Part shown: positions 3,365 to 57,751 of the stretch, one piece after another | How positions within the stretch are numbered: position 1 is the stretch's first letter | Layout of the letters: every line of letters begins with the position of its first letter | Virus record (IMG/VR): IMGVR_UViG_3300045988_184134 | Direction: 5' to 3' (one strand) | DNA length: 64,000 bases | Origin: a virus | The notes under the pieces: model-generated | What the model was told of the DNA's origin: nothing | The model's database searches: none | The model's input: only the letters and a program-made list of their open reading frames with translations | Program-made: the position numbers and the translations under genes

Positions 3365-3494
3365 AAAAAGAGCGGGCCTCCCGCGTGGGAAGTCCGCTCT
3401 TCAAGCGAAATTGTGAATACGAAGGGCAAGTCGCCTTTTCGATTATGTTATCTATCGTACACTTTTATCTTACGCAATTCGCATATTTTGACAA
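3365..3494 (-). promoter_or_regulatory. module copy 1 (TTGTCA-N16-TAAGAT promoter, leader, terminator) upstream of 3005..3337
   Basis: Same P1, P2 and conserved CGTATTCACAATTTCGCTT box as copy 4; terminator AGAGCGGAC…GCCCGCTCT plus U5 at 3365..3400. Confidence 0.55.
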
Positions 3495-3666: not shown

Positions 3667-4824
3667 TTACGGCTTGCAATACCCGCAAGGTGTATAGCCC
3701 TGCTCGATTAGGTCATCGCGGGAACCTGTATAGTCTTTGCGGTTTGCATCGCTCATTTGAGCTACGGCGGAGCAGTCAGGCTTATGAAATTTCATAGAGT
3801 TTGTGTTCAGGACATAGGTACTGACCGTCGTATCCTTTTGCTGTGACTCCTCGACCTCGACTGTATCGGTGGTAGTGCTTTCTGCCGCCTGGTGATATTC
3901 GCCATAAGTGAAAGTGACGTCCTTACCGTCCGATGTGCAGTAGATGTCTCCCATCTCGTCAGTTCTGAAAACCTCAATGTCTTTGCTCTGGAGCTTTGCC
4001 AAAGTGATGTCGTGTGGATGACCATAGCTGTTGTCCTTGCCACAGGAAATAACAGCATAGGCTGGATTCACTGTGTCGAGGAATGCTTCGGATGTGGAGG
4101 TTCGAGAACCATGATGCCCTACCTTCAGAACAGTAGATTGGATGTCTTGTCCAGACTGTAGGATAACATCTTCGGCAGGCTCTTCTGCATCACCCGTAAA
4201 CAAGAATGAGGTTTCTCCATATACGATGCGTAGGACAATGGAGGTATTGTTGGTATCATCCGGCACTGAGTTCACGGCGATAACAGTCACTTCGGCATCG
4301 CCAAGGGAGAATGTATCCCCTACCGACGGAATCGTAAGGCCGTTGCCTCTTTCTTCCGCTCGCTGCTTGAAGTTCCGAAAAGCTTTACTGTCGTACTCTG
4401 TGACAGGGCAATACGTGACATCAGCCGTCACGGCTTCGAATGCACCGGAAAGACCTCCGATATGGTCTTCATGGGCGTGCGTGCCAACAACATAATCCAG
4501 ATGTCCGTCTGTCTCACGTTCCAGAACAGAATATACGAGGTCAGAATCATCAACATTGCCACCGTCAATGAGCATCGAATGCCCATCACAGGTAACAAGA
4601 GCAGAGTCCGCCTGCCCCACATCAATGAAGTGGATAGTAAAGCTGCCGTCTTCCGTTACGCCAGCCGTCTGCTCGCTGTCAGAGACAGGACTTTCTGAGA
4701 CGACCCCGGATACAGGAAGACTACCCGAATCAATCGGGGTCTGACCGCAGCCTGCGAAGCTGAGGGTGAAGAGTGCCGCAATCGCTGCCGCTGCTCTCCG
4801 CAAGAATGTGTTTTTGCTTTGCAT
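3667..4824 (-). CDS. MBL-fold metallo-hydrolase lipoprotein with C-terminal Cys/His zinc-ribbon-like tail
   Basis: Lipobox LSFAGC after the signal peptide; HAHEDHIGG (HxHxDH) metallo-beta-lactamase motif; C-terminal H-K-P-x-C…C-G-Y-C-K-P motif. Confidence 0.7.
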   Translation of the reverse strand: MQSKNTFLRRAAAAIAALFTLSFAGCGQTPIDSGSLPVSGVVSESPVSDSEQTAGVTEDGSFTIHFIDVGQADSALVTCDGHSMLIDGGNVDDSDLVYSVLERETDGHLDYVVGTHAHEDHIGGLSGAFEAVTADVTYCPVTEYDSKAFRNFKQRAEERGNGLTIPSVGDTFSLGDAEVTVIAVNSVPDDTNNTSIVLRIVYGETSFLFTGDAEEPAEDVILQSGQDIQSTVLKVGHHGSRTSTSEAFLDTVNPAYAVISCGKDNSYGHPHDITLAKLQSKDIEVFRTDEMGDIYCTSDGKDVTFTYGEYHQAAESTTTDTVEVEESQQKDTTVSTYVLNTNSMKFHKPDCSAVAQMSDANRKDYTGSRDDLIEQGYTPCGYCKP

Positions 4825-4844
4825 TGGAAATTTCTCCTTTCAAA

Positions 4845-4983
4845 TAAAAAAGAGCGGGCCTACCCCGGAATGGGATAAGTCCGCTCTTAAAACAGATTGT
4901 GAACGATAGAAAATCGTAACATCTTTATGTGTTTGGTATCTATCGCACAATCAATATTGTAGTCAATTCGAAAGGAATGGCAA
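4845..4983 (-). promoter_or_regulatory. module copy 2 (TTGCCA-N16-TACAAT promoter, leader, terminator) upstream of 3667..4824
   Basis: Divergent leader that keeps P1 (GCGATAGA…TCTATCG) and CGTTCACAATCT; terminator AGAGCGGAC…GCCCGCTCT plus U6. Confidence 0.5.
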
Positions 4984-5222: not shown

Positions 5223-5996
5223 CTAAGCAGACAGCGTGGCTCTGACGACATAGCGTTGGTTTGTGGTTTGGTAGTATCCGAACGGATAGCAGGTATACAT
5301 CACGAGCCGGTCGGTGGTGTCCGAAAGGTCCACAAGAATGGTTCCATCATCGGCCACCACAGTGCCCGCGTCTGCCGTTACCGTTCCCGGCCTGGCAGAA
5401 TCTACCGTATATACGTATTGTCCGTAGTCTGTAGTGACCACAAATTCGTCACCAATACTTACGTATTGAAGCAAAGCCAAAGTGCTGTCGTTATGGGAGC
5501 AAAGAAGATGACAACCACCGTAGCCTACCTGATAGGAGCCTGCGTACTGATATACACCGCTGCGGCTGTCGAGGAGAGCTTGGTCATCGCCCCAGATAAG
5601 GGAAGCGTTGATACCTACGCTGCTGCATGAGACTGTCCCGTAGGAAGCGCCATACGTGGCAGGCACCACATCACCCCATACGCTGGTCGTGAGTGGAGCC
5701 GGAGTATCTGTAGGGACCGGTATTGGTGCTTCTGTCGGTTCAGGCGTCTGTGTAGGAGTAGGCTCTGGTGCAGCTGTTGGTTTCGACAAAGGAGCATGAG
5801 GTGTGGGTTCCGGGATGCTGTCGGTGCTTAGATAAATCGCATCATTCGCTGTCTCAGCCGTTGCCGCTGATTCCGTTGTGCTGGCAAAAGAGTCTGGTGG
5901 TACTGATACGGGAGTAGATGCACTACTCGCGCAAGCTGTGGCAAAGGTCAGTACGCCTACTGCCACAGCAGTTATCACTGCTTTTGTCCGTCTCAT
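5223..5996 (-). CDS. sortase-family protein (secreted/lipoprotein, Pro/Thr-rich linker)
   Basis: N-terminal signal/lipobox (FATAC); PT-rich linker. C-terminal domain carries the sortase signature order: His (GGCHLL), Y.Y.V, TLxTC-like LVMYTCYPF, and Arg in RYVVRA. Confidence 0.5.
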   Translation of the reverse strand: MRRTKAVITAVAVGVLTFATACASSASTPVSVPPDSFASTTESAATAETANDAIYLSTDSIPEPTPHAPLSKPTAAPEPTPTQTPEPTEAPIPVPTDTPAPLTTSVWGDVVPATYGASYGTVSCSSVGINASLIWGDDQALLDSRSGVYQYAGSYQVGYGGCHLLCSHNDSTLALLQYVSIGDEFVVTTDYGQYVYTVDSARPGTVTADAGTVVADDGTILVDLSDTTDRLVMYTCYPFGYYQTTNQRYVVRATLSA

Positions 5997-8698: not shown

Positions 8699-8899
8699 CT
8701 ACTCAACCTGAAGCACTGCCTGCATTGAGGTGTGCTGTTTCCGCTTTGCACGTGAAACGGCATGCTGCCTGACCGCCTGGCGGATGGCTGCGTTTGTGTG
8801 TTGGATGCTGGCGGTTTCCTCACGCGAAAAGTTTTTGTCCGTATTTCCTTGAAGATTAGACTCAGTTACAGCCTTTGCAAACTTAATAGATGTCGTCAT
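8699..8899 (-). CDS. small basic protein (66 aa)
   Basis: Internal ATG at 8899 preceded by GGAGG-CAGCT; trimmed from ORF-track 8699..8935. Confidence 0.3.
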   Translation of the reverse strand: MTTSIKFAKAVTESNLQGNTDKNFSREETASIQHTNAAIRQAVRQHAVSRAKRKQHTSMQAVLQVE

Positions 8900-9683
8900 A
8901 GCTGCCTCCGATTCCGGCCCAAAGAGCTTCATCACTCAAGTCGTTGCGAGGGCACTTGATAATGCCCGCTTCTCTTAAAATTTGTCTTGCTTCCTTTGGC
9001 GTTAAGCCGTATTGCTTGGCGAGATTCGATAGAGACTGATTTGGGATAGCTCTGGCTTGTGTAATCAATCGCCTTTTCTTTTCTGTCCAATCGATTGCTA
9101 AGCTCTTGTTTTTTGGAGCTGAGAGAGCGGTTCTTTCAAGGTCTTTTTCGAGGTCTTTTTGGTATTTTTTTGCGGCCGCCTGAATGCCGCTGACCGTCAT
9201 TCCCCATTTATCAGCAATCTTTTTATAAGACATGCCACTGATGTAGTCTTCATATATTTGTTTGTTTCTGGCGTGCTTTTCCTGAACATCTTTCTGGCGA
9301 TAGAGGCGCGTCTTCGCCAAACCTTCACGCTCTTTTTGATACTTTTTCACGATTGACCGAACGCAGCTACTGGTAACGCCCCATTTCTCCGCTATTTTGA
9401 TGCAAGACGCACCACTTATAAACTCTTCATAAATTTGCTTGTTTCTGGTATGTTTTGCCTGTGCATTTTTCTGCCAGTCAAGGCGTGTCTTCGTTAAACC
9501 ATATTTGGGGTCAGAACGTAGAATTTCGACAATTCTATAGCAAGAAAGGCTATATTTGTCCGCCAACTCCAAGACACATACACCATCCATATAATCTCTG
9601 TAAATGGCGTCATTGCGTTCTTTCAAAGATTCATAGACGCCGTTATTCTTTGCCTTCATCATAGTATCGCTGCTTCTCATCAC
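8883..9683 (-). CDS. transcription regulator with four tandem HTH repeats (sigma-70 region-4 / HTH_23-like)
   Basis: Repeated units YRDYMDGVCVLELADKYSLS / YEEFISGASCIKIAEKWGVTSS / YEDYISGMSYKKIADKWGMTVS / SLSNLAKQYGLTPKEARQIL. Confidence 0.55.
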   Translation of the reverse strand: MMRSSDTMMKAKNNGVYESLKERNDAIYRDYMDGVCVLELADKYSLSCYRIVEILRSDPKYGLTKTRLDWQKNAQAKHTRNKQIYEEFISGASCIKIAEKWGVTSSCVRSIVKKYQKEREGLAKTRLYRQKDVQEKHARNKQIYEDYISGMSYKKIADKWGMTVSGIQAAAKKYQKDLEKDLERTALSAPKNKSLAIDWTEKKRRLITQARAIPNQSLSNLAKQYGLTPKEARQILREAGIIKCPRNDLSDEALWAGIGGSYDDIY

Positions 9684-12508
9684 AGACCTCCAAACGAAAG
9701 TTGCTCGCCCGTTGTCTGAGGCTTTGCTTCACTCTTTTCTTTCTTCTTGGAACCAAAGCTGCCACCATTACGCCGCTTGTAGCCGTACCCCTTATGCGCA
9801 GCCTGGACGGATTTGTACCCATACCCGTTTGCATCATCCAGCACAGTGTTGGAATCCTCTTCCATGATGACATAGCGTACATCACCGGGTTTAGATAGCT
9901 TGGAGGAGCGAATAACTCGATATTCGGCCGGAAACGCTTCTTTTTCTTTCTTATACTGCTCTTCTCCGTCCTTCCACCAGCCGACAGGTTCAGAGTCATA
10001 CGTCTGACGCTCCGGCGGCAGACGCTTGTACTGGGAGAAGTCATAGGGTTCGGTTGCGGTTTCTTCTGCAACTTTGACATCCACACCCATGCTCTGCAAG
10101 CTGTTCAGCATTTGCTCGAAACTATCAGCCGGATTCAAAACCACCTGTTTCGAGGCTTGAGCCGGGCTGTACTGGGTAACAGGCTTTGGACGCTTCTTCT
10201 CGCGGACTTTCCAGACCTTGAGAAGCTGACGCTCATTGAAGTCGATGACCAAGCCGCAGTCTTTAAGCATCTTGCGAACCACATAAGTAGAGAAGTTCGA
10301 ATAACCCGAATAGGGGCCGACATGGTTCTCAATATCGACTGCCACGCAAGACATCTGATGTTCGAACTCTGCATGGTCATCAAGCCACTGTTCAATGACA
10401 TGGAGAAGTTCTTTCTTATTGACCGATTCTTCCGTAGCTTTCTTATTCTGTTTCACGTATGCTTCGCAGGCGGCCAGAATTGTGTCATAGCCGTTTACTG
10501 CCGTACCGCCCACGATAGAGCGAGTTCCCGCATCCAGGATGACATACTGCTCACCCTGCTTGATAATAGCAACACCTTCGTCCTGCGGCTTTTCCTCAAC
10601 AATGTTGCCGCCGGTATCAAATTCAGGCAGCGAAGTGTCGGACATAACACGGTCGAGAATCGTGTCAAGGCTCTGGGAGTAGTCTTTCTCCAGATTGTAG
10701 GCGAGAGCTTCCGTATAGACGCCCTTGGTGATGCACTTCACTACCGCATTCAGAAAAGCCGTGCGGTCCGGAATTTCGACTTCATACATCGTGTTATCCC
10801 GGATGTTCCAAAGAACGCCGGTAGGAAGGCCTGTGGCGAGCATATAGCAGGCGCACTGGATGAAGTGCTTGTGTGCGAGGTTTGATACGAACTTCAGATA
10901 ATAGACCTTGTTGTCCTTGACTACATCGGCCATACCGCTAACGATAAGCGATGTGACAGGCTGCTTCAGTTCATCCTGTTCTACCACAATGTTTAGTTCT
11001 GCGCGTTCCTGAACCTCTTCATCATGGGTAAACATCGTAGAGAGGCGGTCAGTCAGCGCTTTTGCCTGTTCCGGCGTGATGAAAGGCAGTTCAACCTGCT
11101 TGATGTAACGGTCCTGACTCGTCATCAGCATCGTCAGGAACAGGACTTTTTGCTCCACTGATTTCCAAGAGGTCGGGACCTTCGCCATCTTGTCCTTGTG
11201 TAGGTACATGAAGAAGGCGATGGCGCTGTCGATGTCGTAAAAATCGAAGAAGTTTGCCTGCTGGTAGATACCGATGCAGGGAGACAGGTCAATCATCGCA
11301 TCGGAGTGCTTGATTTCGATTTCCGTCTGGTCTTTCTGGAATACCTGCTTGGTTGTGATAAGGTTGTAGCACGCATCCACATCCTCATCAAACTTGAAAT
11401 CGAACATTTCACTGATGTCGAATTTGTCCTTAAAGGTGGTGCGAGTCTTGACAGGGGTCATCAGTGTCTTGTCACTCACGAGGCTACGCTTATCAGGCTT
11501 AACGAAGATGACTTCTTGCTTGCCACGGCTCGCAGCTACGCAAAAGAGGTTGCGCATGATTTCGTAGCGAGTCAGAGGCTGGCGCATACGGGTCGCCCAG
11601 TAATCCTCGGTAAAATCGAAGACCACGCAGATAGGACGTTCCATGCCCTTGCTGCCGTCGAATGTCGTGAAGATGCCCACATTGCTGTTCGGAGCTACGC
11701 TTTTTTCGCCGTCGTTGTCCTTGATGCTGGCATAAACATGTTTTTTGTCGTAAAGGTTATCGGGGCGCTCTTCCAAGGCATTCAAAACTGCGGCCATCTG
11801 GCCGGTACGAGCGCCAAGGCATAGGACGTTCTTCGGGTCCAAATCGTTGAGGTACTCGATGACCTCATCCTTCGTCATGGACTTGACTTTGCAGTTCTCG
11901 TTGACTCCGTTGATTTCCTTATTCCAGATAGTGCCAAGGCGCTCGGCCAAGTCGTGGGACAAGCGGAAGCATTGGGTAAAGTTGACCTGCGTGTGTTTGC
12001 CGAGGAACTTGTTGATGAAGTTCCAGATGTCCAAGGATGTGGTGTCGTAGATTTTCTGCGCCATATCCCCCACCGCAATAATTTGCATGGTGGGGTTTTC
12101 TTCCTTGATATATTCAAGCATTCGAGAGATTTCTTCGTTAATATCTTGGTACTCATCGATGATGAGCACGTCATAGCGACCGACCGGAACATGCAAATCG
12201 AGCGCCTTCTTAATTTGCTCGCCCTGTCCAATATTACGAACTCCGTGCCGATAGAGGAGTTTTGAAGCAAAGCCGTGGTAGTTCTGGACGACAACATTGT
12301 CGTTTAGGATTTTTTCTTGCGCGTCGAGTTTTAGCAGACGGTTATAGGTCAGGTACAGAATCTGTTTGGAGGCGTCAAACTCGTTACACAACACGTTGAT
12401 GGTCGATGTTTTACCGCTGCCGATGCAAGCGTCACAGAGTATATTTCTGCCTGCGAGAGCCAGGCGTACAAGGTCCTGTTGCTCAGTAGACAGGTTAGCG
12501 AGAGTCAT
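9680..12508 (-). CDS. UvrD/PcrA-like superfamily-1 DNA helicase (942 aa) with long C-terminal extension
   Basis: Motif I GSGKTS, motif II IIDEYQD, FTTFDGSKGME, motif VI VAASRGKQEV; preceded by leader/terminator module copy 6. Confidence 0.8.
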   Translation of the reverse strand: MTLANLSTEQQDLVRLALAGRNILCDACIGSGKTSTINVLCNEFDASKQILYLTYNRLLKLDAQEKILNDNVVVQNYHGFASKLLYRHGVRNIGQGEQIKKALDLHVPVGRYDVLIIDEYQDINEEISRMLEYIKEENPTMQIIAVGDMAQKIYDTTSLDIWNFINKFLGKHTQVNFTQCFRLSHDLAERLGTIWNKEINGVNENCKVKSMTKDEVIEYLNDLDPKNVLCLGARTGQMAAVLNALEERPDNLYDKKHVYASIKDNDGEKSVAPNSNVGIFTTFDGSKGMERPICVVFDFTEDYWATRMRQPLTRYEIMRNLFCVAASRGKQEVIFVKPDKRSLVSDKTLMTPVKTRTTFKDKFDISEMFDFKFDEDVDACYNLITTKQVFQKDQTEIEIKHSDAMIDLSPCIGIYQQANFFDFYDIDSAIAFFMYLHKDKMAKVPTSWKSVEQKVLFLTMLMTSQDRYIKQVELPFITPEQAKALTDRLSTMFTHDEEVQERAELNIVVEQDELKQPVTSLIVSGMADVVKDNKVYYLKFVSNLAHKHFIQCACYMLATGLPTGVLWNIRDNTMYEVEIPDRTAFLNAVVKCITKGVYTEALAYNLEKDYSQSLDTILDRVMSDTSLPEFDTGGNIVEEKPQDEGVAIIKQGEQYVILDAGTRSIVGGTAVNGYDTILAACEAYVKQNKKATEESVNKKELLHVIEQWLDDHAEFEHQMSCVAVDIENHVGPYSGYSNFSTYVVRKMLKDCGLVIDFNERQLLKVWKVREKKRPKPVTQYSPAQASKQVVLNPADSFEQMLNSLQSMGVDVKVAEETATEPYDFSQYKRLPPERQTYDSEPVGWWKDGEEQYKKEKEAFPAEYRVIRSSKLSKPGDVRYVIMEEDSNTVLDDANGYGYKSVQAAHKGYGYKRRNGGSFGSKKKEKSEAKPQTTGEQLSFGGL

Positions 12509-12540
12509 GGTTTGAATCCTCCAGAATACGTATTAACGCA

Positions 12541-12634
12541 AAAAGAATACCCCGGCAGGCACGCATGGTGTTCCGCCGGGGTACAATTATTTATCTTACA
12601 ATATCAATTGTAGGCAATTCGCACAGATGGTCAA
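12541..12634 (-). promoter_or_regulatory. module copy 6, short form (TTGACC-N16-TACAAT promoter, then terminator, then RBS of the helicase)
   Basis: TGTGCGAATTG spacer motif; hairpin TACCCCGGCGG…CCGCCGGGGTA plus UUCUUUUU. Confidence 0.5.
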
Positions 12635-12914
12635 GCGCTTTTTATCGTATTTTGTTTTGAGTTTTGCGAGCACAAAAACAACGTCCACCCGTGATTTACG
12701 GATGGACGTTCAATCTTACGCAGCTACATGTGCTGCTACGATGCTTTCGGACGACATGTAGTCGATACCGTCCTCGTTTCAATCTTACGCAGTCACACGG
12801 GCTGCTACGGCAAAATTACATAACAAAGAATTTTGCATATATTCAGCATTGTATATTCTGCCACTATTGGTTCTACGTTATTTTTGTTTGCTATCACCGC
12901 ATCTCTTTGCGGTT

Positions 12915-13922
12915 TTACATAATTCGATGCAGATAGGATTTGTTGATTTCTACGAGCAACTCCTCGATTTTCGCAAAATCGGGTTTTGCCGGGAGTTCCG
13001 TTTTCTTCACGTCACGCTGGAATTTCGTTTCGAGCTGGTCCACAGACTCGAAGAATTCGGGTGCATACGACCCATCCTCACGCATATACTTGCCGTTGCG
13101 GATAGCCAGCAGTTCTTCGTGCTCCTTGTCCCGGCGGGTGATGATGCGTCCTTGCTCCAGAATGTCAAATGCTGTGTAATACAGTCTCACAAGGTGCATG
13201 GCGTGCTTATTGATATGGGCAGCATCCTTTTGCGCTTTCGGATGCTGCGGCTGTTCATACTGGTCGATAGTCGTTGTCAGACCTCGAAGCAGGGACTTGA
13301 GAGAGTTGACAGGATAGTTACTCAGATTTCCAGAAATCAAGAGAGGATGTTTGCCTTCAGAATCGACATCTTCACTGATGCTGATTTTGAAAACGTCATC
13401 TTTCCCTTGGCCTGCAACCAGGCGTTCAAGACTTCTCTTCTCAAACTTGTTTTTGAGTGCTTCCGGTGAAGTGCCATTACGAAGGAGACCCATCTGCAAG
13501 CGTCTGAGCTGGTCGTTTGCAAAGCCACCATAGCTATAGGCAACGCGCCGAGTCAGAAAAAGCTCCTTATTATCGAGCAGCATCTGTCCTTCAGAGGTCA
13601 TATTCACATACAGCTCCGGGTCGTTGCCAAGAAGCTCGATGACATTAGGATTGCATTGGACAAGCAAGTTTACGAACTTATTGATAACGTAGATAACTGT
13701 GTCTGTCTGATTATTGATAACTTGCTCAAAGCGGTTAAATCCCAAGATTTCAGGCGAACCGGCCGCACCACGGATGTCAACATCCGAGCCCTCGATATTC
13801 GTGCCGTAGGCGTGGCTGCCTCCGACGGTCAAAAACAGGATATTGTCTCCCAGATGCTTGATGGTACGTAAAAAATCGTATTCTTCGCGCTGGAGGATTG
13901 CTTTCAATTCTTCGTTGGTCAC
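12915..13922 (-). CDS. Pol-beta-superfamily nucleotidyltransferase with helical C-terminal domain
   Basis: GGSHAYGTNIEGSDVDIRG, the [GS]x9-SDxD NTase signature, followed by a third acidic position in TDTVIYV. Confidence 0.55.
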   Translation of the reverse strand: MTNEELKAILQREEYDFLRTIKHLGDNILFLTVGGSHAYGTNIEGSDVDIRGAAGSPEILGFNRFEQVINNQTDTVIYVINKFVNLLVQCNPNVIELLGNDPELYVNMTSEGQMLLDNKELFLTRRVAYSYGGFANDQLRRLQMGLLRNGTSPEALKNKFEKRSLERLVAGQGKDDVFKISISEDVDSEGKHPLLISGNLSNYPVNSLKSLLRGLTTTIDQYEQPQHPKAQKDAAHINKHAMHLVRLYYTAFDILEQGRIITRRDKEHEELLAIRNGKYMREDGSYAPEFFESVDQLETKFQRDVKKTELPAKPDFAKIEELLVEINKSYLHRIM

Positions 13923-13942
13923 TAAATCACTTCCTTACTACT

Positions 13943-14362
13943 TTATGTCAGCGCGGTGCATTCGGATTCAACCCGAATCAACTTTTCAGTCCGCCAATCA
14001 TATTCCAGCACGTCTTTGGCAACCACTGTGCTTCCCTCGATATATTCCAGAATTTGCCGCACACGCATGGGACGTTTCGCATCCTGTGCTATCCGTAGCG
14101 CTGCATCTCTGTACTCAACTGTGTATGCAGGCTCGTAGGTTACATACGGGCAGCCATCGGGTTGTGTCTGACGACTCAGCTCAAAGCGCGACCGGACGTA
14201 GCCGTTGTGCAGGGCATTACGGATGGCGCAAGCACTTTTTCTTTCGCCACTCTGTTCAAAGGTTTGTGCAATTTCCTCCACACACCGACAAAAATGCGTG
14301 GCATCTTGGCTGTGTTTTGCGAAAATCAGTTTTCGAATCAGCAGTGCTTCATCTTGACTCAC
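13943..14362 (-). CDS. hypothetical protein (139 aa)
   Basis: Intact ORF in operon arrangement downstream of the NTase. Confidence 0.45.
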   Translation of the reverse strand: MSQDEALLIRKLIFAKHSQDATHFCRCVEEIAQTFEQSGERKSACAIRNALHNGYVRSRFELSRQTQPDGCPYVTYEPAYTVEYRDAALRIAQDAKRPMRVRQILEYIEGSTVVAKDVLEYDWRTEKLIRVESECTALT

Positions 14363-14374
14363 GGCTCTCTCCTT

Positions 14375-14710
14375 TCACTTCTTCGTCGAGACCAAGAAGA
14401 CTCTTTTGGAGAAAGTTCCCTTCTCTGCTGCCTTCTGGCTTCTGACCTGTTCCACTTCCCTCTTAGAGACAGCGCAAGTCTTGCCCATAGCGTACAGAAC
14501 CTCCATGACGTCTGATATTTCCTCTGCAAAGTCCAGAACGCTCCGTTGCTTGGCGGTGTAGGCTTCCAGCAGTTCGGCAACCTCTTCTTTCAGTTTCTCA
14601 GCCAGAGCATCTTCGTACTCCTTATCAGACAGCTTACGGGTCACGCAGGTTTCTCCGTTTTTCTCAATAATAGCCGGGATATTATCCCGAACCAGCTTTT
14701 GAAACATCAT
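14375..14710 (-). CDS. MazG/HisE-like all-alpha NTP pyrophosphohydrolase
   Basis: KLVRDNIPAIIEKNG…EEVAELLEA…DFAEEISDVMEVLYAMG pattern. Start trimmed to the internal ATG so the gene abuts the upstream stop. Confidence 0.55.
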   Translation of the reverse strand: MMFQKLVRDNIPAIIEKNGETCVTRKLSDKEYEDALAEKLKEEVAELLEAYTAKQRSVLDFAEEISDVMEVLYAMGKTCAVSKREVEQVRSQKAAEKGTFSKRVFLVSTKK

Positions 14711-14714
14711 AGTT

Positions 14715-15131
14715 TTATCTTTCCTCCAGTTTACAGCGCCGCAGCGGTATGCGCAGCTCATGACAGGTGTATGCGGTTTCTCGTTCATCATCGGTTCCTT
14801 CAAAGACTACACAGCCTTTCTGCTGTTGCTTGGAAAGGTATGCGGGTAAATCATCGTTTGTGACAGATACAAATAGGTATCCACGCTCACTGGCGTACAT
14901 CGCAGCCAAGGCCGCAATCTTCTGCCCTGATTCTGCTACAATGACAACCTTATCTCGTTTTGCCAGCATCTTGTCGAGATACTCAGCTACCTGTTGGCGG
15001 TGCTTCCCCATCGCTTGCTGCGTGGCAGTAACACCACAAAAGAACCAATCCTTTTCGCAGATTCTGGCATCGCATTCCTTGCACTGAAGGTGGACCACGT
15101 TGCCATCTGTATAGGGGCAATAGCTGCTCAT
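14715..15131 (-). CDS. Cys-rich hypothetical protein (138 aa)
   Basis: C-x-x-C pairs CPYTDG…CKEC and ICEKDWFFC. Confidence 0.45.
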   Translation of the reverse strand: MSSYCPYTDGNVVHLQCKECDARICEKDWFFCGVTATQQAMGKHRQQVAEYLDKMLAKRDKVVIVAESGQKIAALAAMYASERGYLFVSVTNDDLPAYLSKQQQKGCVVFEGTDDERETAYTCHELRIPLRRCKLEER

Positions 15132-17555: not shown

Positions 17556-17876
17556 TTAGCCTTCGATATCGAAAGTGTAGCCCTTCACGGTCATAGTGAC
17601 CAGGCCGCTGCAAGACTTGCACTTTACGCCGTCCAGGCTGACATCGAGAGTCAGGCTGGAATCTTCGTTGTCCAGCCAGCTGGGCCGCATGTAGGCAGCG
17701 AGGTCGTGCAGCGCACCGATGACGTAAGCAACCAGGTCCTCATCATCCAGAGTCTGAGCAATCACGTCGTTTTCCTTGTCAGCGGGAAAGCCGATGGAAG
17801 CGGTGATGCTGTCAAGGGTGTTGTCGCCCTTGGAACGGAAAGCGGTGGCGCTGAACTCAATCAGGTTGGTACTCAT
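17556..17876 (-). CDS. hypothetical protein (106 aa), paralogue of 18065..18385
   Basis: Shares FSATAFRS…WLDNEDSSLTLD… with the neighbouring cassette; has its own promoter and terminator. Confidence 0.5.
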   Translation of the reverse strand: MSTNLIEFSATAFRSKGDNTLDSITASIGFPADKENDVIAQTLDDEDLVAYVIGALHDLAAYMRPSWLDNEDSSLTLDVSLDGVKCKSCSGLVTMTVKGYTFDIEG

Positions 17877-18064: not shown

Positions 18065-18385
18065 TTAGTCTTCGAAATTGAAGGTGAAGCCACTTTCTTT
18101 CATAGCGACAAGGCCGCCGCGCGTCTGACATTTGTTTCTATCGAGAAAGGTTTCAAGCGTCAGGCTGGTGTCCTCATTGTCCAGCCATTTGGGGCGCAGG
18201 TCGCTGATAAGGTTGTACAGTGCTGCGACAGCATGGACAATCAGTTTCTCTTCGCCCAGCATGTTTCCAATCACTTCGTCGTCGTTCTCCACAGGGACGC
18301 TGATGGAAGCCGAGAGACTTTCGAGGTTGTTGTTGTCATCGTTGCGGAATGCGGTAGCTTCGAATTTGAGAGTACAAGTGTTCAT
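18065..18385 (-). CDS. hypothetical protein (106 aa), paralogue of 17556..17876
   Basis: AAAGGAGAA RBS before the internal Met MNTCTLKFEATAF; similar terminator to the sister cassette. Confidence 0.5.
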   Translation of the reverse strand: MNTCTLKFEATAFRNDDNNNLESLSASISVPVENDDEVIGNMLGEEKLIVHAVAALYNLISDLRPKWLDNEDTSLTLETFLDRNKCQTRGGLVAMKESGFTFNFED

Positions 18386-22284: not shown

Positions 22285-22728
22285 TTATCTTAATTTGGTC
22301 CTGATTTCTTCGAGCATCATGCCCAGTTTGTTCTGACCGTGAACGCCCTTGCATCTGGGACACTGGCAGTCGCCCCAATAGTTATCGTGCCAGCCTGTCG
22401 TGTCCTCAATAATGTGCCGGTCGCCTGTAGCGAGCAGTCGCTGTTTGAACTCTTCGTTCTGGTTGAACTTGGCATACAGCACCCGGCGCATCGCTTCGTC
22501 TCGAACTTTGTCCCAATCTGGAGAAAGTTGGACCCGGCGGCCGAGTCGCTTAGCCTCGTTCGGCATGAGACAGGCAAACTGGCGTCTTTCCTCCGGCGGG
22601 ACCTTTTGTGCCTGGAACGCTGCCTCCGCGTTGAGGTAGTAGATTCCATCTAGCACAAAGGAGCAAGGATAATAATTGCTCAGAAACCCGTAGGTCGGGT
22701 CGTCTTTCTTAAACCGCAGCAGATTCAA
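22285..22728 (-). CDS. NADAR-domain protein (YbiA-like N-glycosidase / ADP-ribose processing)
   Basis: YGFLSNYYPCSFVLDGIYYLNAEAAFQAQK…EAKRLGRRV…DWDKVRDEAMRRVLYAKFNQNEEFKQRLLATGDRHIIEDTT matches the NADAR signature. TTG start with GGAGGG RBS, overlapping the upstream stop. Confidence 0.65.
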   Translation of the reverse strand: MNLLRFKKDDPTYGFLSNYYPCSFVLDGIYYLNAEAAFQAQKVPPEERRQFACLMPNEAKRLGRRVQLSPDWDKVRDEAMRRVLYAKFNQNEEFKQRLLATGDRHIIEDTTGWHDNYWGDCQCPRCKGVHGQNKLGMMLEEIRTKLR

Positions 22729-23371
22729 TGTGCATTCCCTCCATAACCCCGGCGGGCGTATCTTTGAGAACCTTGTAGCGCATCGTCGTGGCACCAAGCA
22801 GACCGTTGAAGACGGTCACGGCGGTATGCACGAACAGAGGGTTCTGCAAGGTCATCTTGCCGTTTGTATCCCACTGGCCTTTGAGTTCAGCGGCCGCATC
22901 GTACACAACCATCATCATGGCTTCATACATGTCGGACATCAGCTGTCGGTCGTACTTCTTCAAAGCATAGTAGCTTGGTAGGTTGTAAACGCGGCCGAGG
23001 AGCGGCTCGTCATACAAGGGCGAACCTTTCGCAACCATCGTATTGTAGACTTTGGGCCAGGCAGCTTCTTTCGGCTTGCCGGTGGTTGCCTGCATCTCGA
23101 TGTTCTTGAAACCAGCCGTCATGTTGTACAGCACCATGAGCCGCTCGGCAAGCAAGACGGAAGATTCAGCCAGGTGCTTTGCTTCCTCATTGGTCATCGC
23201 AACCTGCATGGCCGTGCTGTCCGAGTCGTTGCCATAATAGAAATACTGCTTGCGCCCGGCGGCAGCTTTCTGTACGAGCTTCTTTGCCAGCTGGCTTTCG
23301 ATGTAATTGTAGATGTCGTTTTCCAACTCACAGGTGATGTGCGTTGCGGTATAATGGATATTTTTGTTCAT
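22709..23371 (-). CDS. hypothetical protein (220 aa) co-transcribed with NADAR
   Basis: Stop overlaps the NADAR start; preceded by leader/terminator module copy 7. Confidence 0.5.
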   Translation of the reverse strand: MNKNIHYTATHITCELENDIYNYIESQLAKKLVQKAAAGRKQYFYYGNDSDSTAMQVAMTNEEAKHLAESSVLLAERLMVLYNMTAGFKNIEMQATTGKPKEAAWPKVYNTMVAKGSPLYDEPLLGRVYNLPSYYALKKYDRQLMSDMYEAMMMVVYDAAAELKGQWDTNGKMTLQNPLFVHTAVTVFNGLLGATTMRYKVLKDTPAGVMEGMHIESAAV

Positions 23372-23403
23372 TGGTTTACCTCTTTGTGTATAATAAAAAG
23401 AAA

Positions 23404-23490
23404 GAGCGGTCGAGCCGCTCTCCTCAAAACACTTATTTAGCTTACAATTTTCATTCTATGCAATTCGCACAGACACGCAAGGCAAAATGG
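23404..23490 (-). promoter_or_regulatory. module copy 7, short form (TTGCGT-N16-TAGAAT promoter, then terminator, then RBS of 22709..23371)
   Basis: TGTGCGAATTG spacer motif; hairpin GAGAGCGGCTCGACCGCTCTTTC plus U5. Confidence 0.5.
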
Positions 23491-35073: not shown

Positions 35074-35220
35074 TTTTATATGAACCACCGGCCCAGGAAA
35101 AAGCCGATGGGGTGAATACAAGCGGAAAGCAAACATGTCAAAGTGAGAGGAAACCACGTCGTACACACCGGCAGGAAGAGGTTAAGACCCGCCGGAACCC
35201 AATTCCGCTTGTACAATTCT

Positions 35221-35260
35221 AATTCTACGCAATTCGCACAAATGCACAAGACATTATTTC
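35221..35260 (-). promoter_or_regulatory. promoter TTGTGC-N16-TAGAAT with TGTGCGAATTG spacer motif; heads the about 230-nt leader of the flotillin gene
   Basis: Sequence match; an upstream intrinsic terminator at 35271..35310 insulates it. Confidence 0.5.
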
Positions 35261-37380: not shown

Positions 37381-37905
37381 TTATTTGTGATGGAGAGGTG
37401 CTGCTCCGAGTAATGCTGTCACATCAAACGACGATGCGTTATAGACTGTCAGCTGTTTCTCAAGCGCGTATTTCACAGTATAAGCTGTGCCGCCTGTCTG
37501 CTTCGTGCAGTAAGAAATGCAATAGTCTGAGCAATCGACCAGATGCCTGTCACGGGTCAAGTAAGCACTCTTGCTCGGCTCTTTACTGACATAGACGATT
37601 TTGTCCATCTTTTTGTCTAAGTTCTTAGCATGGAGCTGCTGTTCTGGAGTCCATCGGTCGCGGTAGCCTTCAAAAGGAAGCACCTCGATGATGCGCAGGC
37701 GGCCGTTTTCTTTCTTCAGCTCAATGAGCATCTCCGCTACGAGGGTATCGAATCCTAAAGCACCGCCTACTCCATAGTAGATAATTCCGCTCTGGATGAG
37801 TGGGATAAGCCGATGCCTTACTCTGGTTAGAATCTTTGTTTGCTCTCCCGGCGGGATGTTTCGATGCCCCGTAAAGCAGCATGTTTGCTTCTTAAATTTT
37901 CCCAT
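37381..37905 (-). CDS. SLOG-superfamily protein (DUF1273/YpsA-like)
   Basis: CCFTGHRN…GGALGFD pattern typical of YpsA/DprA-like SLOG Rossmann domains. Confidence 0.4.
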   Translation of the reverse strand: MGKFKKQTCCFTGHRNIPPGEQTKILTRVRHRLIPLIQSGIIYYGVGGALGFDTLVAEMLIELKKENGRLRIIEVLPFEGYRDRWTPEQQLHAKNLDKKMDKIVYVSKEPSKSAYLTRDRHLVDCSDYCISYCTKQTGGTAYTVKYALEKQLTVYNASSFDVTALLGAAPLHHK

Positions 37906-46453: not shown

Positions 46454-47296
46454 TTAGAGATAGTTAGATAGCTTAATGACGGATACTCCGTATGGAGATG
46501 TATCAATGTCGAGGTATGTGCAGCCGGAGTTGGGTCTATCCATCCGAGTGATTTCTTTATGAGGGATATGGCCGAAAACATAGAGCGTATCCCGATGGCC
46601 GGTCAGCATTTCATCTTTATCATAGTCAAAGACTCTGCCGAACGGATTGTTGTGTGTCACCACGACTTGTTTGAATCGAGAGCCAGGCGGAGGTGTGATA
46701 TTGAGTTCCTGCGTTTGATTCTCAAAGACGGCTTCAAAGCTTTCCCTTGTCCTTTTCGTGCCAGACAGGTACTCGTAGATGGTATGCTCTGCTTCATACG
46801 GTGTGCCACACATATTGTCGAGCAAGTATACGACCATCTGCCAAAGCCCATCATTCTCCCACGAGAGAGTATAAGTGATGAAGAGCTTCTGCCACCCGGC
46901 GAATGTATGAGGTCTTGCGGCGAGAATCTTCTTTCTTTCCTCCATGCTGCATCTGAGCGTTTCGAGTTCTTCTTTTGTTCTGAAGATGTGCTCTCCTTGC
47001 TTGTAGTGTAGGAAGACCCAGGCTGCGAGCTTTCTGACGGTCGGAGACTGTGCGAGTGCTTTATAGTATCGAAGCATCTGCCTATGTTCGTATTCGTGGT
47101 TGCCAAGAACGAGATGGACTGTATCTGGATGTTCCGTAATGAAGTTGACGACCTTTGCGTTTTCCTTGCCACGGTCTACTACATCACCAACGAAGACGAG
47201 CTTGTCGGTTCCTTCATTCCATCCGGCGGCCATGAGGGATTCGATGAGACCTTTGTAGTTCCCATGCACATCTCCTGCCACATAGATGTCGCTCAT
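46454..47296 (-). CDS. calcineurin-like metallophosphoesterase (Ser/Thr phosphatase / ApaH-like)
   Basis: GDVHGN, GDVVDRG and GNHE motifs in the canonical order. Confidence 0.75.
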   Translation of the reverse strand: MSDIYVAGDVHGNYKGLIESLMAAGWNEGTDKLVFVGDVVDRGKENAKVVNFITEHPDTVHLVLGNHEYEHRQMLRYYKALAQSPTVRKLAAWVFLHYKQGEHIFRTKEELETLRCSMEERKKILAARPHTFAGWQKLFITYTLSWENDGLWQMVVYLLDNMCGTPYEAEHTIYEYLSGTKRTRESFEAVFENQTQELNITPPPGSRFKQVVVTHNNPFGRVFDYDKDEMLTGHRDTLYVFGHIPHKEITRMDRPNSGCTYLDIDTSPYGVSVIKLSNYL

Positions 47297-48081
47297 TGGT
47301 TATCACCTTCTTTCCCAAAGTCGTCCGTGTTTATTTCCGCAATCTGGTTGTACAGCACTCTGAGCTTGTACATCGGTTTATCGATGTCTTGGTGCATGTG
47401 GCCGCAACACCATTGTTTAAACTTCACCCGGCGGTAAATTTCATCAAGGTATACGCCAGTCGGGTCGTGAATCGGGCTGATGTCTCTGAAATAGATTGGC
47501 ATGAGCATCTGTGGAAGCATGTGCGTCAGGATGATGTCTACTTTATTCCCATGCTCATCCAATGCGTCAAGACCGTGCCACATCTCTTTCTGAGATGGGA
47601 CTTCTTCCCTCCACCAAGTGACGCCTTCTGTACGGTATGCTTTATCGATAGACTCTGCACCTCCCATACACCATACAGTCATACCATCAATCGTGTAGTA
47701 TTCGCCGCGCATCAGGTGGATGACATTCGGTGCTTCCGGCAGGCGTTGAATCAAGCCGCCATTCCACCGTTCAGTAGGCTGCTCTGCCCAGAAGGTGTGG
47801 TTATCGTGGTTACCATCGATGAAGAGGATATTGCAAGGAAAAGACTTCATCCAGTCGGTGTACATCTGGTACGCTCGCGCTGACTTGATACAGTGTTGCG
47901 GCATGTCCAGTGTCTTGAGGTCGTCCGCCGGGATGCGGTCTGTCGGAAAGAACGGAAATCCGAAGTCTCCGCAAACAACAATCGCATCATCTTTTGTGAT
48001 GTCACGGTTAAGGAACCGTTTCGGATTGATTTTGGAAATCTCATCCGGTCCATGTGTATCGCCAAAAATATGAAGAAGCAT
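47293..48081 (-). CDS. second calcineurin-like metallophosphoesterase
   Basis: GDTHG, GDFG and GNHD motifs; start overlaps the stop of the first phosphoesterase. Confidence 0.7.
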   Translation of the reverse strand: MLLHIFGDTHGPDEISKINPKRFLNRDITKDDAIVVCGDFGFPFFPTDRIPADDLKTLDMPQHCIKSARAYQMYTDWMKSFPCNILFIDGNHDNHTFWAEQPTERWNGGLIQRLPEAPNVIHLMRGEYYTIDGMTVWCMGGAESIDKAYRTEGVTWWREEVPSQKEMWHGLDALDEHGNKVDIILTHMLPQMLMPIYFRDISPIHDPTGVYLDEIYRRVKFKQWCCGHMHQDIDKPMYKLRVLYNQIAEINTDDFGKEGDNQ

Positions 48082-51708: not shown

Positions 51709-51876
51709 AAAGAGTTTTCTCCTTTCAAAAGAAAAACCGCTCGGTGTAGCAACCGAACGGCAGGAATTGTGAATTATATAAAGGAATAGTATCTATGCTA
51801 CATTCATAATTGTACGCATATCGCACAGTCGTGCAATAGAAAAAGCCGCCCTCTTGAAAGAGGACGGCAGTTAATG

Positions 51877-53930: not shown

Positions 53931-54112
53931 AAAAAGAGCGGGCCTCCTGACGAATCAGGAAGTCCGCTCTTGGCAGTTTGTTAAGGGTCAAAGCTCAAGC
54001 AGCCGGATTGGTTCCGGTGGACAACTTACAACATAGTAAGTTTCCAAATTGCTTGCGATAAATGGTATCCATTAACTGCTTTTTATTATAGGCAGTTCGC
54101 AAGCAGCGTCAA
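53931..54112 (-). promoter_or_regulatory. module copy 3 (TTGACG-N16-TATAAT promoter, different leader, same terminator hairpin) upstream of 53472..53795
   Basis: Terminator AGAGCGGACTTCC…GGAGGCCCGCTCT plus U6 at 53931..53970; about 130 nt more of leader before the RBS. Confidence 0.45.
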
Positions 54113-54136: not shown

Positions 54137-55318
54137 TTACTTTTTTGAGGCCTTTACACTAAAGCTGCGACTCGTTTCTCGCTGCGGAATCAGGCAGTCG
54201 TTAAAAGCCTTGGGATACAAAGCCTCCAGCTTTTTCATGTCAACGGAAGTGCGGCTCATGCGAGGCGTGTACTTGATAAGCCATGTAGTGCCATCAACGC
54301 CCGTGGCTTCGCCAGCAACATTCGCACCGAGCGCAGCAGCGAACGGGACAACCATATCCTTGCACTGCTCGTCCAGCAGCTCATACGCCTTTTTAGTGGC
54401 ATCACGTTTGGCCTTCAGGTCGCTGTACTCCTTGCACATCTGAGCAAACTCAGAGCCAAGCAGCATGGCAGGAGCCTTTTTGTTCGCATCCCCCGCGTAC
54501 TTGTGAATCGTGTCCAGCACAGCCTCCGCGTTGCCAATCGGCTCAGGCGGGTTCATAGGAAGAACATGATTCAGCCAGAAGTCATCAATTCCTTCAATGA
54601 TGCGCATTTCCTCGTCGAGGTCACGCTTAATGGTGTTAGCCACGATAGTATCGCGGTCAAACATGCAGACAACAACACATTCCCAGACACCCAGGATTGC
54701 CATATATGTGCGCACCTGATAAATGTAAGGAAGAGGGATGTTGCCGTTCTCCCATTCAGACTTCTTGAAAGAACTCGCCGTTTTGATTTCGACAAGGCAG
54801 TAGGAGCCGTCGGGTTTGCGCATCATACGGTCGATGTTGGCCGTAATATAAGGCTTGCCTGGCATGGCGTAAATGTTCGTATCCGTGATAATTTGGTTGT
54901 ACGGATAGCGCTCAGACAGCCACGCATCCACATACTCCTCGGAGATGTGGCCCCACAGCTTGTTTAATCTCGACTGGGATGTTTCCTGCTCAACGACCAG
55001 AGGCTTCTTGCCCGTCTTGGCATAGTACAGGTCAAGGTTCGTCTTATAGGCATTCGCGCCAAAGATGGCAGAAATGTCAGAGCCTCCAAGGTGAGTGGCA
55101 CGGCGGTCCTGCCACTGGGTATCCGTCAGCGTGCTGGCATCAACCTCAACTTCGGGGCCATTGTAACCATCCGGGTCACAGAACTTGATAGCTTCGGGCG
55201 AAGCCTGGCCCATTGCCTCATTGTAAAGGCTGCGGGTGTACTCCGTCCGAATTTCCCAGTACGGAAGGTGCTGAGCGCACCCCGCGCTGGATTTGTTAGT
55301 ACCGTCATAGCTTGCCAT
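54137..55318 (-). CDS. YqaJ/lambda-Exo-like 5'-3' exonuclease (PD-(D/E)xK)
   Basis: LGGSDISAIFG…, RKPDGSYCLVEIKT (D…E-x-K) and a C-terminal extension. Confidence 0.65.
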   Translation of the reverse strand: MASYDGTNKSSAGCAQHLPYWEIRTEYTRSLYNEAMGQASPEAIKFCDPDGYNGPEVEVDASTLTDTQWQDRRATHLGGSDISAIFGANAYKTNLDLYYAKTGKKPLVVEQETSQSRLNKLWGHISEEYVDAWLSERYPYNQIITDTNIYAMPGKPYITANIDRMMRKPDGSYCLVEIKTASSFKKSEWENGNIPLPYIYQVRTYMAILGVWECVVVCMFDRDTIVANTIKRDLDEEMRIIEGIDDFWLNHVLPMNPPEPIGNAEAVLDTIHKYAGDANKKAPAMLLGSEFAQMCKEYSDLKAKRDATKKAYELLDEQCKDMVVPFAAALGANVAGEATGVDGTTWLIKYTPRMSRTSVDMKKLEALYPKAFNDCLIPQRETSRSFSVKASKK

Positions 55319-56584: not shown

Positions 56585-56719
56585 AAAAAGGCGGACCCCC
56601 GAAAATTTCGGAAGGTCCGCCTAAAAGCGAAATTGTGAATACGAAGGGCGCTTTGCCTTTTCGATAACTGTTATCTATCGTACAACTACCATTGTATTCA
56701 CTTCGCACAGCTGTGCAAG
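56585..56719 (-). promoter_or_regulatory. module copy 4: promoter (TTGCAC-N17-TACAAT), conserved structured leader, intrinsic terminator, then RBS of 55415..56560
   Basis: On the minus strand: TTGCACAGCTGTGCGAAGTGAATACAAT; P1 CGATAGATAAC…ATCG; P2 AAGGC-AAAGC-GCCCTT; box CGTATTCACAATTTCGCTT; hairpin GGCGGACC…GGTCCGCC plus U5; AAAAAGGAGAA; ATG. Confidence 0.55.
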
Positions 56720-57175: not shown

Positions 57176-57751
57176 TTATTGTCCTTTCTGCTGTGCTATA
57201 TCATTGTCTGTGGTTTCGGGAGTTCCAATCGGGATACTATAGTAGACCTTTGAAAGAATGTTATCTCTCGGCACAAAATGTTCATCCCAATAACGTGAAT
57301 CGTATGAGTTATTTCGATTGTCCCCCATCATAAAGTAGCATCCACTGGGTATCTGAAAGGGACCAAAATCCAAATCTTCTGGAGTTTCTCTCAAGTACGG
57401 CTCATCATAGATTTCACCATTGATATAGGTTTGCCCGTGCTTGATTTCAAGAGTGTCTCCCGGCATTCCAACAATACGCTTGGCATATATCTTTGAATTG
57501 CCATCTGCTCTTTTGAAAAGCACGATGTCTCCCCTTTCAGGTTCTTCAAACCAGTAAGTGGCTCTTGCGCTGAAGGAGAAACACGGAGAGGGCAATGTCG
57601 GATACATAGATGCGGTAGGGATAATAGCAGTCAGGAAAACGAACTTGAATAAGATAAATGCAACTGCGAAGCAGATAACGGGGAATCTCCATTCCCGCCA
57701 GAACTGTTTCACCCTTGCGGTGTGCGACTGCACATTGTTATTTTCGTCCAA
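57176..57751 (-). CDS. signal peptidase I (S26 family)
   Basis: Box B ASMYPTL (catalytic Ser), box D KRIVGMPGDT (catalytic Lys), box E GDNRNNSYDSRYW. Confidence 0.8.
   Translation of the reverse strand: MDENNNVQSHTARVKQFWREWRFPVICFAVAFILFKFVFLTAIIPTASMYPTLPSPCFSFSARATYWFEEPERGDIVLFKRADGNSKIYAKRIVGMPGDTLEIKHGQTYINGEIYDEPYLRETPEDLDFGPFQIPSGCYFMMGDNRNNSYDSRYWDEHFVPRDNILSKVYYSIPIGTPETTDNDIAQQKGQ

Follow-up and report, generated by a model that had tools for sequence, protein, structure and literature searches.

The 64,000-nucleotide (nt) stretch analysed here, IMG/VR virus record IMGVR_UViG_3300045988_184134 (hereafter the window), carries on its minus strand a 942-amino-acid (aa) open reading frame (ORF; 9680-12508) for an SF1 helicase of the UvrD/AddA/RecB-like type. 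Directly in front of it lies a compact module made up of a promoter, a hairpin followed by a U-tract and a ribosome-binding site (RBS), all on the minus strand like the ORF itself. The protein matches AAA_19/UvrD-helicase, with weak matches to PD-(D/E)XK nucleases, and an orthologue with 65% identity is found in a Clostridiales metagenome-assembled genome. The module is no chance match: it is conserved and belongs to a large regulatory family. We propose, at what we judge to be an even chance, that it acts as a gate of the helicase operon, a conserved cassette with a promoter-proximal intrinsic terminator that is passed by factor-dependent read-through.

Anatomy of the module

In the direction of transcription, the module begins with a promoter of the sigma-A type, TTGACC-N16-TACAAT (12634-12607, minus strand), in which the -35 hexamer TTGACC occupies 12634-12629 and the -10 hexamer TACAAT occupies 12612-12607. 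The 16-nt spacer between them, ATC-TGTGCGAATTG-CC (12628-12613), holds the 11-mer TGTGCGAATTG (12625-12615, approximately -25 to -15), which is the hallmark of the promoter family described below and a candidate protein-binding site, either Q-binding-element-like or an operator. A 22-nt A/T-rich stretch, tgatattgTAAGATaaataatt (12606-12585), follows the -10 hexamer. Transcription is likely to start within it at G12599, which is preceded by T; we placed the start at this Y-R step, 7-8 nt after the -10, because the step (offsets 6/7) is conserved in both classes of family promoters, T at offset 6 and G/A at offset 7 being kept in terminator-bearing and terminator-less promoters alike. The last 16 nt of the stretch form a 5' box, TGTAAGATAAATAATT (12600-12585), the short-form counterpart of the box TGTACGATAGATAAC of longer leaders, which contains the -10-like hexamer TAAGAT (12598-12593, +2 to +7), a candidate sigma-dependent pause element.

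The hairpin (12584-12547) starts 22 nt past the -10 with the invariant base TGTACCC and has a 12-bp stem, with the 5' arm GUACCCCGGCGG (12584-12573) and the 3' arm CUGCCGGGGUAU (12558-12547), and a 3-bp apical stem. The 12 pairs include 8 G-C and 2 G-U pairs, and the U-tract UCUUUUU (12546-12540) abuts the closing U12547 of the stem on its 3' side, so that both sequence hallmarks of an intrinsic (Rho-independent) terminator, a GC-rich stem-loop and an adjoining U-rich tract, are present. The cassette from the -35 through the U-tract measures about 95 bp, and the terminated RNA is predicted to be about 59 nt long. A 17-nt linker (12539-12523) leads to the Shine-Dalgarno (SD) sequence GGAGGA (12522-12517), which is separated by 8 nt (12516-12509) from the ATG (12508-12506). 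By itself the hairpin folds with approximately -24.8 kcal/mol, and the 92-nt leader has a minimum free energy (MFE) of -30.8 kcal/mol (z = -2.9) that none of 200 shuffled sequences equalled. The 16 nt ahead of the stem, i.e., the 5' box, are unpaired in the MFE and centroid structures alike. A consensus terminator scan skipped this hairpin, its loop being longer than the 8-nt limit of the tool.

A preliminary description made from the sequence alone had given this promoter, a terminator-like hairpin with a 12-bp GC stem about 25 nt downstream, an RBS and no long leader. We see the same parts, on the minus strand, and the stem moreover covaries across four clades of helicase genes. The description is right in its anatomy apart from the strand convention and two spacings: the SD lies 8 nt and not 6 nt from the ATG, and the distance to the SD is 17 nt counted from the U-tract, or 24 nt counted from the end of the stem. 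It had also called the arrangement a minimal promoter-terminator-RBS unit; the short leader bears this out, but the arrangement is not a bare one, for it includes a conserved TAnnnT box 8 nt after the -10 and a conserved TGT(A/G)CCC hairpin base.

Upstream, the module borders on an independent intrinsic terminator (12710-12680, minus strand; 13-bp stem followed by GUUUUUG), which marks the boundary to the preceding unit. The preliminary description had located it at 12670-12700 and taken it for the end of a nucleotidyltransferase (NTase) operon. A separate terminator does exist there, and it directly follows a CRISPR-like mini-array of two repeats (12708-12809, minus strand) lying immediately upstream of the module, not the NTase ORF, whose stop is at 12915; what it ends is thus the mini-array unit and not simply the NTase operon. 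As the upstream unit ends at 12710-12680 and there is no promoter-like site between the hairpin and the helicase ATG, polymerase bound for this ATG must cross a terminator.

Conservation across helicase clades

Helicase orthologues fall into four clades with aa identities to the window protein of 97-100%, ~68%, ~65% and 64% (the last represented by contig L300). The promoter, the short leader, the hairpin with its T-run and the RBS immediately before the ATG are present in all four, and the DNA upstream of the -35, including the upstream genes, differs or is unrelated between clades. Helicase homologues with at most 54% identity are without the module. In a 13-sequence alignment, 93.5% of the cells in stem columns are paired, compared with 39-50% in controls in which the partner was slid by 1-3 columns, and compensatory changes are seen at 4 of 13 pairs; over the two runs made, the values span 92-93.5% paired cells, 3-4 pairs with compensatory changes and 37-50% in the slid controls. 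T-runs of at least five follow the stem in all four clades, and the SD core is GGAGG in three of them and AGGAG in the fourth (L300). The hairpin loop is free to vary while the box stays conserved.

The invariant leader columns of the four clades are T37, A38, T42, A43, A45, A47, A48, T50 G51 T52 and C54 C55 C56. They correspond to a TAnnnT hexamer (TAAGAT, TAAACT, TAGACT and TAAGAT by clade), an A-rich run and TGT(A/G)CCC as the base of the hairpin. The hexamer always stands 8 nt past the -10, and these 8 nt are unrelated in sequence between clades and constant in length, which argues for a coupling of the box to the promoter.

The interval from the upstream gene to the promoter shows no terminator-like hairpin with a U-tract in the ~68% and ~65% clades, where the hairpin of the module would stop upstream transcription too. 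The statement of the preliminary description that the hairpin is not needed to end the upstream transcript is therefore borne out by the independent terminator in the window and does not extend to these two clades.

One related contig, L055 (IMGVR_UViG_3300045988_183587), is anomalous about 60-75 nt upstream of its helicase ATG (3001), where the promoter, the box and the first bases of the 5' arm are swapped for an unrelated GC-rich sequence. The breakpoint falls inside the stem, which points to a natural rearrangement or an assembly chimera.

A promoter family with short and long leaders

Bare -35/-10 matches occur in the window at background frequency (3 found, 2.5 expected). A 28-nt motif that includes the conserved spacer TGTGCGAATTG is matched 12 times with at most 3 mismatches (0.00 expected), every time in an intergenic position on the minus, i.e., coding, strand. 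A relaxed search added copies at 994 and 58107, and reading of the sequence added the variants at 4983 (spacer TTTCGAATTG) and 51836 (spacer TGTGCGATATG). The family consequently has at least 16 copies in the window, at 446, 994, 3494, 4983, 12634, 17950, 18460, 23480, 28116, 35249, 36243, 51836, 54112, 56718, 58107 and 61505, each on the coding (minus) strand, with the consensus TTGnnn-N3-(T)GTGCGAA(T/C)TG-NN-TA(C/G)AAT, and related human-gut contigs contain the same promoter many times over. As a rule, the spacers of sigma-70/A promoters show no conservation. The conservation seen here hence points to a regulator site, operator or activator, common to the whole element and shared by terminator-bearing and terminator-less units alike. 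We compared the 11-mer with the consensus sequences of known sites. A Spo0A box (TGNCGAA) was rejected on spacing, the sequence here being TGTGCGAA with one base too many, as was membership in sigma-54, sigma-H or extracytoplasmic function (ECF) -35/-10 pairs; an extended -10 was rejected with the TG off by one position. A dispersed asymmetric operator similar to that of P1 C1 is possible.

About ten of the promoters (446, 3494, 4983, 12634, 23480, 51836, 54112, 56718, 61505 and probably 35249) carry a strong terminator ahead of the first start codon, and six (994, 17950, 18460, 28116, 36243 and 58107) do not. The helicase module, introduced in the preliminary description as a short form, is indeed a short member of this family, next to long forms at 3494, 4983, 56718 and 61505, an intermediate one at 51836 and a 5'-divergent one at 54112. 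Two further short forms, both on the minus strand like all siblings, lie at 349-446 (promoter 446-419, box TAAACC, terminator 382-355) and at 23395-23480 (box TAAGCTAAATAAGTGT, a 7-bp GC stem and UUUCUUUUU). The long form at 3366-3494 consists of the promoter, TGTACGATAGATAAC, an internal hairpin, TTCACAATTTCGCTT and the terminator AGAGCGGACTTCC..GGAGGCCCGCTCT with a U-tract; the others occupy 4843-4983 (the one with the variant spacer), 56585-56718 and 61365-61505. In the intermediate module (51726-51836) the box TAGCATAGATAC and TTCACAATTCC precede a terminator at 51761-51736, and the 5'-divergent module (53935-54112) has a highly structured leader and ends in the same terminator sequence as the long forms.

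Over many related loci, the long forms share TGTACGATAGATA(A/C)C, a variable hairpin, CGTA..TTCACAATTTCGCTT and a near-fixed terminator, GGCGGACTTCC..GGGAGSCCGCC. This terminator is near-identical at 3494, 4983, 54112 and 61505, a more divergent version being found at 56718, and it contains a conserved unpaired A at the same place of the stem in the cross-locus alignment. RNAalifold applied to 15 long-form leaders recovered the terminator helix only, with covariation in 7 of 13 pairs. The closing stem P1 (GUACG/CGUAC) is nearly invariant and thus free of covariation; its support comes solely from variant copies that pair differently, e.g., GUGCGAUAG/CUAUCGUUCAC at 4983. The base of the short-form hairpin, UGUAC...GUAU-UC, resembles this closing stem with the U-tract placed directly after it, and the helicase module looks like the long-form design minus its middle.

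Modules of the terminator class precede the helicase gene, a 381-aa protein together with a YqaJ/RecE-like exonuclease, a 300-aa protein together with a DUF3854 primase, and an MBL-fold hydrolase. Behind the terminator-less promoters lie small unknown genes, the gene of a P-loop protein and a signal-peptidase unit. Such a split of genes by class would fit a division into immediate-early and delayed-early units. Two genes about 500 bp apart (17556-17876 and 18065-18385, minus strand) encode paralogous 106-aa acidic proteins of unknown function, each behind a terminator-less family promoter of its own (17950 and 18460). The promoter at 35249 is followed by a highly structured RNA of about 140 nt (35085-35249, minus strand; MFE -53.7 kcal/mol, z = -4.6) with UGUACAAGCGGAA/UUCCGCUUGUA as its closing segments and UUCAC after them; no ORF start lies near it, the region is conserved in related contigs (L071, L074 and others), and the RNA could represent a non-coding RNA or a leader of unusual length.

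The 5' box accompanies terminators

We clustered the promoter-plus-leader sequences of the window and of related loci into 54 groups, of which 29 bear a terminator and 25 are without one. The box at offsets 6-18 after the -10 (TGTAMRATARAWA) is conserved in the terminator-bearing groups only. The core pattern [T/A]AnnnT at offset 7-8 is found in 20 of the 29 terminator-bearing vs 3 of the 25 terminator-less groups (Fisher p = 2.6e-5, the terminators having been called by a heuristic script with a few misclassifications), with a sharp peak at offset 8, and one of the three exceptions is a module with a weaker terminator overlooked by the script. The -35 TTG is present in 29/29 terminator-bearing and 23-25/25 of the other clusters, a regularity partly imposed by the clustering filter.

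Proposed regulation of the helicase operon

A terminator behind its own promoter makes sense if polymerases from that promoter can become terminator-resistant. In the gate that we propose, the host sigma-A RNA polymerase would initiate at about G12599 from a strong promoter with the element-specific 11-mer in its spacer, transcribe the 16-nt A/U-rich 5' box with its -10-like hexamer and, by default, terminate at the 12-bp hairpin and U-tract, releasing the RNA of about 59 nt. The helicase and the rest of the operon would be expressed only once a putative element-encoded factor has made polymerase from this promoter terminator-resistant. A terminator in this position, downstream of the promoter, also halts polymerases that come from farther upstream, and the operon would therefore need both the promoter and the factor for its expression. 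Within this explanation we give about half of the weight to a Q-like loading of the factor, in which sigma would bind once more, at the -10-like hexamer (+2 to +7), the polymerase would pause near the invariant TGT at about +15 to +17, and the factor would bind the conserved element between the -35 and the -10. Alternatively, an RNA-binding or NusG-paralogue-type factor might read the 5' box and the base of the hairpin.

Several points weigh against the gate or its Q-like version. The covariation of the stem comes from four clades only and represents few independent events, and the class statistics depend on the terminator calls of the script mentioned above. Box positions 14-18 are conserved as strongly as TAnnnT, which a pure sigma-pause element leaves unexplained, and in the long forms a part of the box pairs within an RNA stem. 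The spacer 11-mer is also present in terminator-less promoters, so it cannot alone be the antitermination signal and could equally be the operator of a repressor. Finally, the ORFs scanned, which comprise about 60 of the ~83 ORFs of the window and hence a portion of the ~370-kb element, yielded no protein of the Q-family, NusG/KOW, N-like, ANTAR or CAT/RAT type. The sole hint of a factor is a sub-threshold match (E = 0.005) to PF06530, the Q21 family, in the protein encoded at 8883-9683; PF03589 and PF06323 are the accessions of the Q-lambda and Q82 families.

This protein (minus strand), located 3' of the helicase gene, contains four tandem helix-turn-helix (HTH) units of the Mor/CD3324-like, sigma region-4-like type. 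Its counterpart in the close relatives L001/L002 (5826-6446) seemingly has one unit fewer, with high-scoring segment pairs covering ~207 vs 266 aa. A search of PDB sequences with it was uninformative. We considered it as an integral partner of the module and rejected this, as it follows the helicase gene only in the closest clade and not in the 65% and 68% clades.

The main rival to factor-dependent gating is a constitutive attenuator or insulator, to which we give a clearly smaller, minority share of belief. A partly efficient terminator would fix a low output of the helicase-nuclease and block upstream read-through with no dedicated factor, and the box would set the transcription start or promoter escape. 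The promoter and the terminator are both strong on paper, the scanned ORFs yielded no factor gene, many units of the window are bracketed by terminators, and insulation is plausible in the 68% and 65% clades, in which no upstream terminator-like hairpin with a U-tract is visible. However, an insulator would normally lie upstream of the promoter, and a weaker promoter would be a simpler route to low expression. This explanation also does not account for the 13-nt box at a fixed 8-nt offset in terminator-bearing leaders only, or for the near-identical terminators with a conserved unpaired A at 3494, 4983, 54112 and 61505.

It is improbable that the cassette serves chiefly to make the terminated RNA of about 59 nt, the siblings then being a family of small RNAs (sRNAs) with a single-stranded 5' seed (UGUAAGAUAAAUAAU / UGUACGAUAGAUAAC) and a terminator hairpin, and read-through into the helicase gene being secondary. 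A conserved single-stranded 5' segment followed by a terminator hairpin is the architecture of many bacterial sRNAs, and the conserved box, the variable loop and the several copies per genome agree with it. Yet every copy lies directly before an RBS and a gene on the same strand that has no other promoter, no complementary target occurs in the window except the intramolecular partner in long forms, and the strict distance of the box to the -10 suggests a role at the promoter or the 5' end, not that of a seed.

Slightly less credible again is a function of the hairpin as a stability or processing element of the 5' untranslated region (UTR), by protection from RNase J/Y or as an RNase III site, in which termination would be inefficient and the U-run incidental. 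Such elements are common in Firmicute mRNAs, and the long-form RNA is predicted to start inside a stem (GUACG/CGUAC), as 5' stabilisers do. In the short form, though, about 16 nt separate the stem from the predicted 5' end, more than a classical 5' stabiliser allows, and the U-tract abutting a GC-rich stem is kept in 4/4 clades and in all sibling modules.

Countertranscript or trans-RNA attenuation of the pT181/pIP501 plasmid or P4 immunity type, with an RNA complementary to the 5' box deciding on terminator formation, is very unlikely. The element has plasmid-like genes (a sortase, a signal peptidase and a DUF3854 primase whose closest relatives are on large Clostridia plasmids), and the shared box could serve as a common target; the short leader nevertheless offers no alternative structure to switch, and no convincing antisense promoter lies in it, the plus strand having TACAAT-like hexamers (complements of ATTGTA) with no -35 and none being listed by the promoter scan. 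The complement of the box does not occur in the window outside the leaders themselves, its only copy being the intramolecular partner within the 4983 module. An attenuator based on structure switching was rejected, as the short leader has no alternative antiterminator helix, no leader ORF or peptide, no leader RBS and no Rfam match.

Comparison with known systems

The closest parallel to the proposed gate is the Q cassette, in which a factor site between the -35 and the -10, a -10-like element in the initial transcribed region causing a sigma-dependent pause, a terminator and the controlled genes follow one another (PMC6606751, PMC9388147). The order and spacing of the parts as predicted here match those of the lambdoid late cassette (PR', Q-binding element (QBE), pause element, tR'), and the short RNA terminated by default in the Q system is predicted here too. 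The 21 QBE lies at about -21 to -13, and the conserved element described here at -25 to -15 (PMC6606751, PMC9388147). A -10-like candidate pause element in the initial transcribed region and an intrinsic terminator between promoter and gene are thus found here; a Q-family gene among the scanned ORFs and a single cassette for a late operon are not. Q controls late genes from one cassette per genome, whereas the cassettes here, at least ten in 64 kb, precede early-type genes of DNA metabolism, replication and recombination, and the host is a Clostridia bacterium, unlike those of lambdoid Q systems. The lambda terminator lies about 190 nt from the start of transcription, compared with about 60 nt here.

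Other regulators reach a similar end by different means. AlpA of Pseudomonas aeruginosa, a small HTH protein unrelated to Q, binds a promoter element and lets the polymerase bypass a downstream intrinsic terminator (PMC9371919), which shows that Q-like logic arose with different protein folds. AlpA acts at one chromosomal locus in another organism and on other sequences, and no AlpA-like gene was identified here. In Bacillota, the NusG paralogue LoaP and the dfn leader combine a small RNA hairpin with an intrinsic terminator in the 5' leader, the factor giving read-through there and at later terminators (PMC12691694). LoaP leaders are longer and have a recognition hairpin separate from the terminator; here a box stands at a fixed distance from the promoter, and no NusG/KOW gene was found among the ORFs scanned. 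RfaH with its ops element and UpxY of Bacteroides show how a short conserved leader element of several operons recruits a specialised elongation factor to paused polymerase and so creates a multi-operon regulon (PMC12691694, PMC11685472). RfaH counters mainly Rho and not a promoter-proximal intrinsic terminator (PMC12691694). The box described here is conserved over the terminator-bearing leaders and would be a candidate for such a recruitment element; it is unrelated to the ops sequence, and the scanned ORFs contain no RfaH-type paralogue. Classical 5'-UTR attenuators (riboswitch, T-box, RAT/LicT, leader peptide) have the same order of promoter, intrinsic terminator, RBS and gene, but the short form has about 16 unpaired A/U-rich nt in the place of an antiterminator helix, an aptamer-sized domain or a leader ORF, and no Rfam match.

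The element and its other features

We assign the window to a mobile element or jumbo phage of about 370 kb from human-gut Clostridia, which may be a phage or a plasmid. Related contigs of 370-389 kb occur in several independent assemblies. The DNA polymerase is 45% identical to those of phages of gut Oscillospiraceae and Clostridia. The DUF3854 primase is closest to large gut-Clostridia plasmids (Vescimonas, Subdoligranulum and C. perfringens), so the 'viral' label of IMG/VR may hide a megaplasmid or a phage-plasmid. The best annotated relatives of the primase are on gut-Clostridia plasmids of 120-250 kb, and its Vescimonas homologue adjoins an integrase, an exonuclease, a RecD-like helicase, an AcrIIA9-family protein and PcfJ. 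Megablast with 9000-14500 as the query matched nothing in the phage and plasmid collections, Rfam at gathering thresholds gave nothing over the whole window, and Rfam at E up to 10 gave chance matches only (DnaX, a miRNA and a Brucella sRNA) over 12450-12900. No tRNAs were found. The genes of the window include a sortase (5223-5996), a type I signal peptidase (57176-57751), the DUF3854/Toprim primase (59169-60386) and the YqaJ/RecE-like exonuclease (54137-55318). A further set comprises enzymes of the nucleotide or signalling type (3667-4824, 22285-22797, 37381-37905, 46454-48081, 14375-14803 and 12915-13922), namely the MBL-fold hydrolase, a NADAR domain protein, a YpsA/SLOG protein, two calcineurin-like phosphoesterases, a MazG-like protein and an RlaP-type nucleotidyltransferase; it is reminiscent of counter-defence gene sets, which is only a resemblance.

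The mini-array upstream of the module is composed of the repeat CGTAGCAGCCCGTGTGACTGCGTAAGATTGAAAC (12809-12776), a 35-nt spacer (12775-12741) and a degenerate terminal copy (12740-12708). Among the relatives, L002 shares this spacer, L045 carries another one of 35 nt, and L001 contains a single repeat only. The end of the repeat, ATTGAAAC, is typical of type I-C and related systems. Neither cas genes nor further copies of the repeat were found in the window, searches for protospacers with the mini-array spacers returned self matches only, and a search with the 3' end of the repeat gave one unrelated partial match. The structure fits virus-borne mini-arrays or solitary-repeat RNA anti-CRISPRs (PMC6858448, PMC10651486).

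Implications

Promoter-proximal terminator gates are of a known kind; what is new is their use in many copies, together with the specific promoter and box elements and the host group. We regard it as a tentative and rather doubtful extension of the gate that the element of about 370 kb runs many of its early and replication genes by a multi-copy, Q-like, promoter-coupled antitermination regulon whose antiterminator belongs to an unrecognised family. If so, each unit would combine the same factor site in the spacer, a sigma-A-dependent pause element at +2 to +7 and a promoter-proximal terminator of its own, and Bacillota would then have their first Q-type system, which would also be the first one deployed genome-wide rather than at a single late promoter. 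If the module is only a fixed attenuator, it would represent ordinary tuning of gene expression.

The cassette is compact, modular and reused many times per genome, and therefore provides a testable handle on regulation in gut mobile elements without a cultured host. Its natural short, intermediate and long leader variants could help dissect what an antitermination signal needs, and the cassette is a candidate orthogonal promoter-terminator switch for engineering in Bacillota. If the gate works as proposed, uncultivated large elements of gut Clostridia would time or restrict their gene expression mainly through terminator override.

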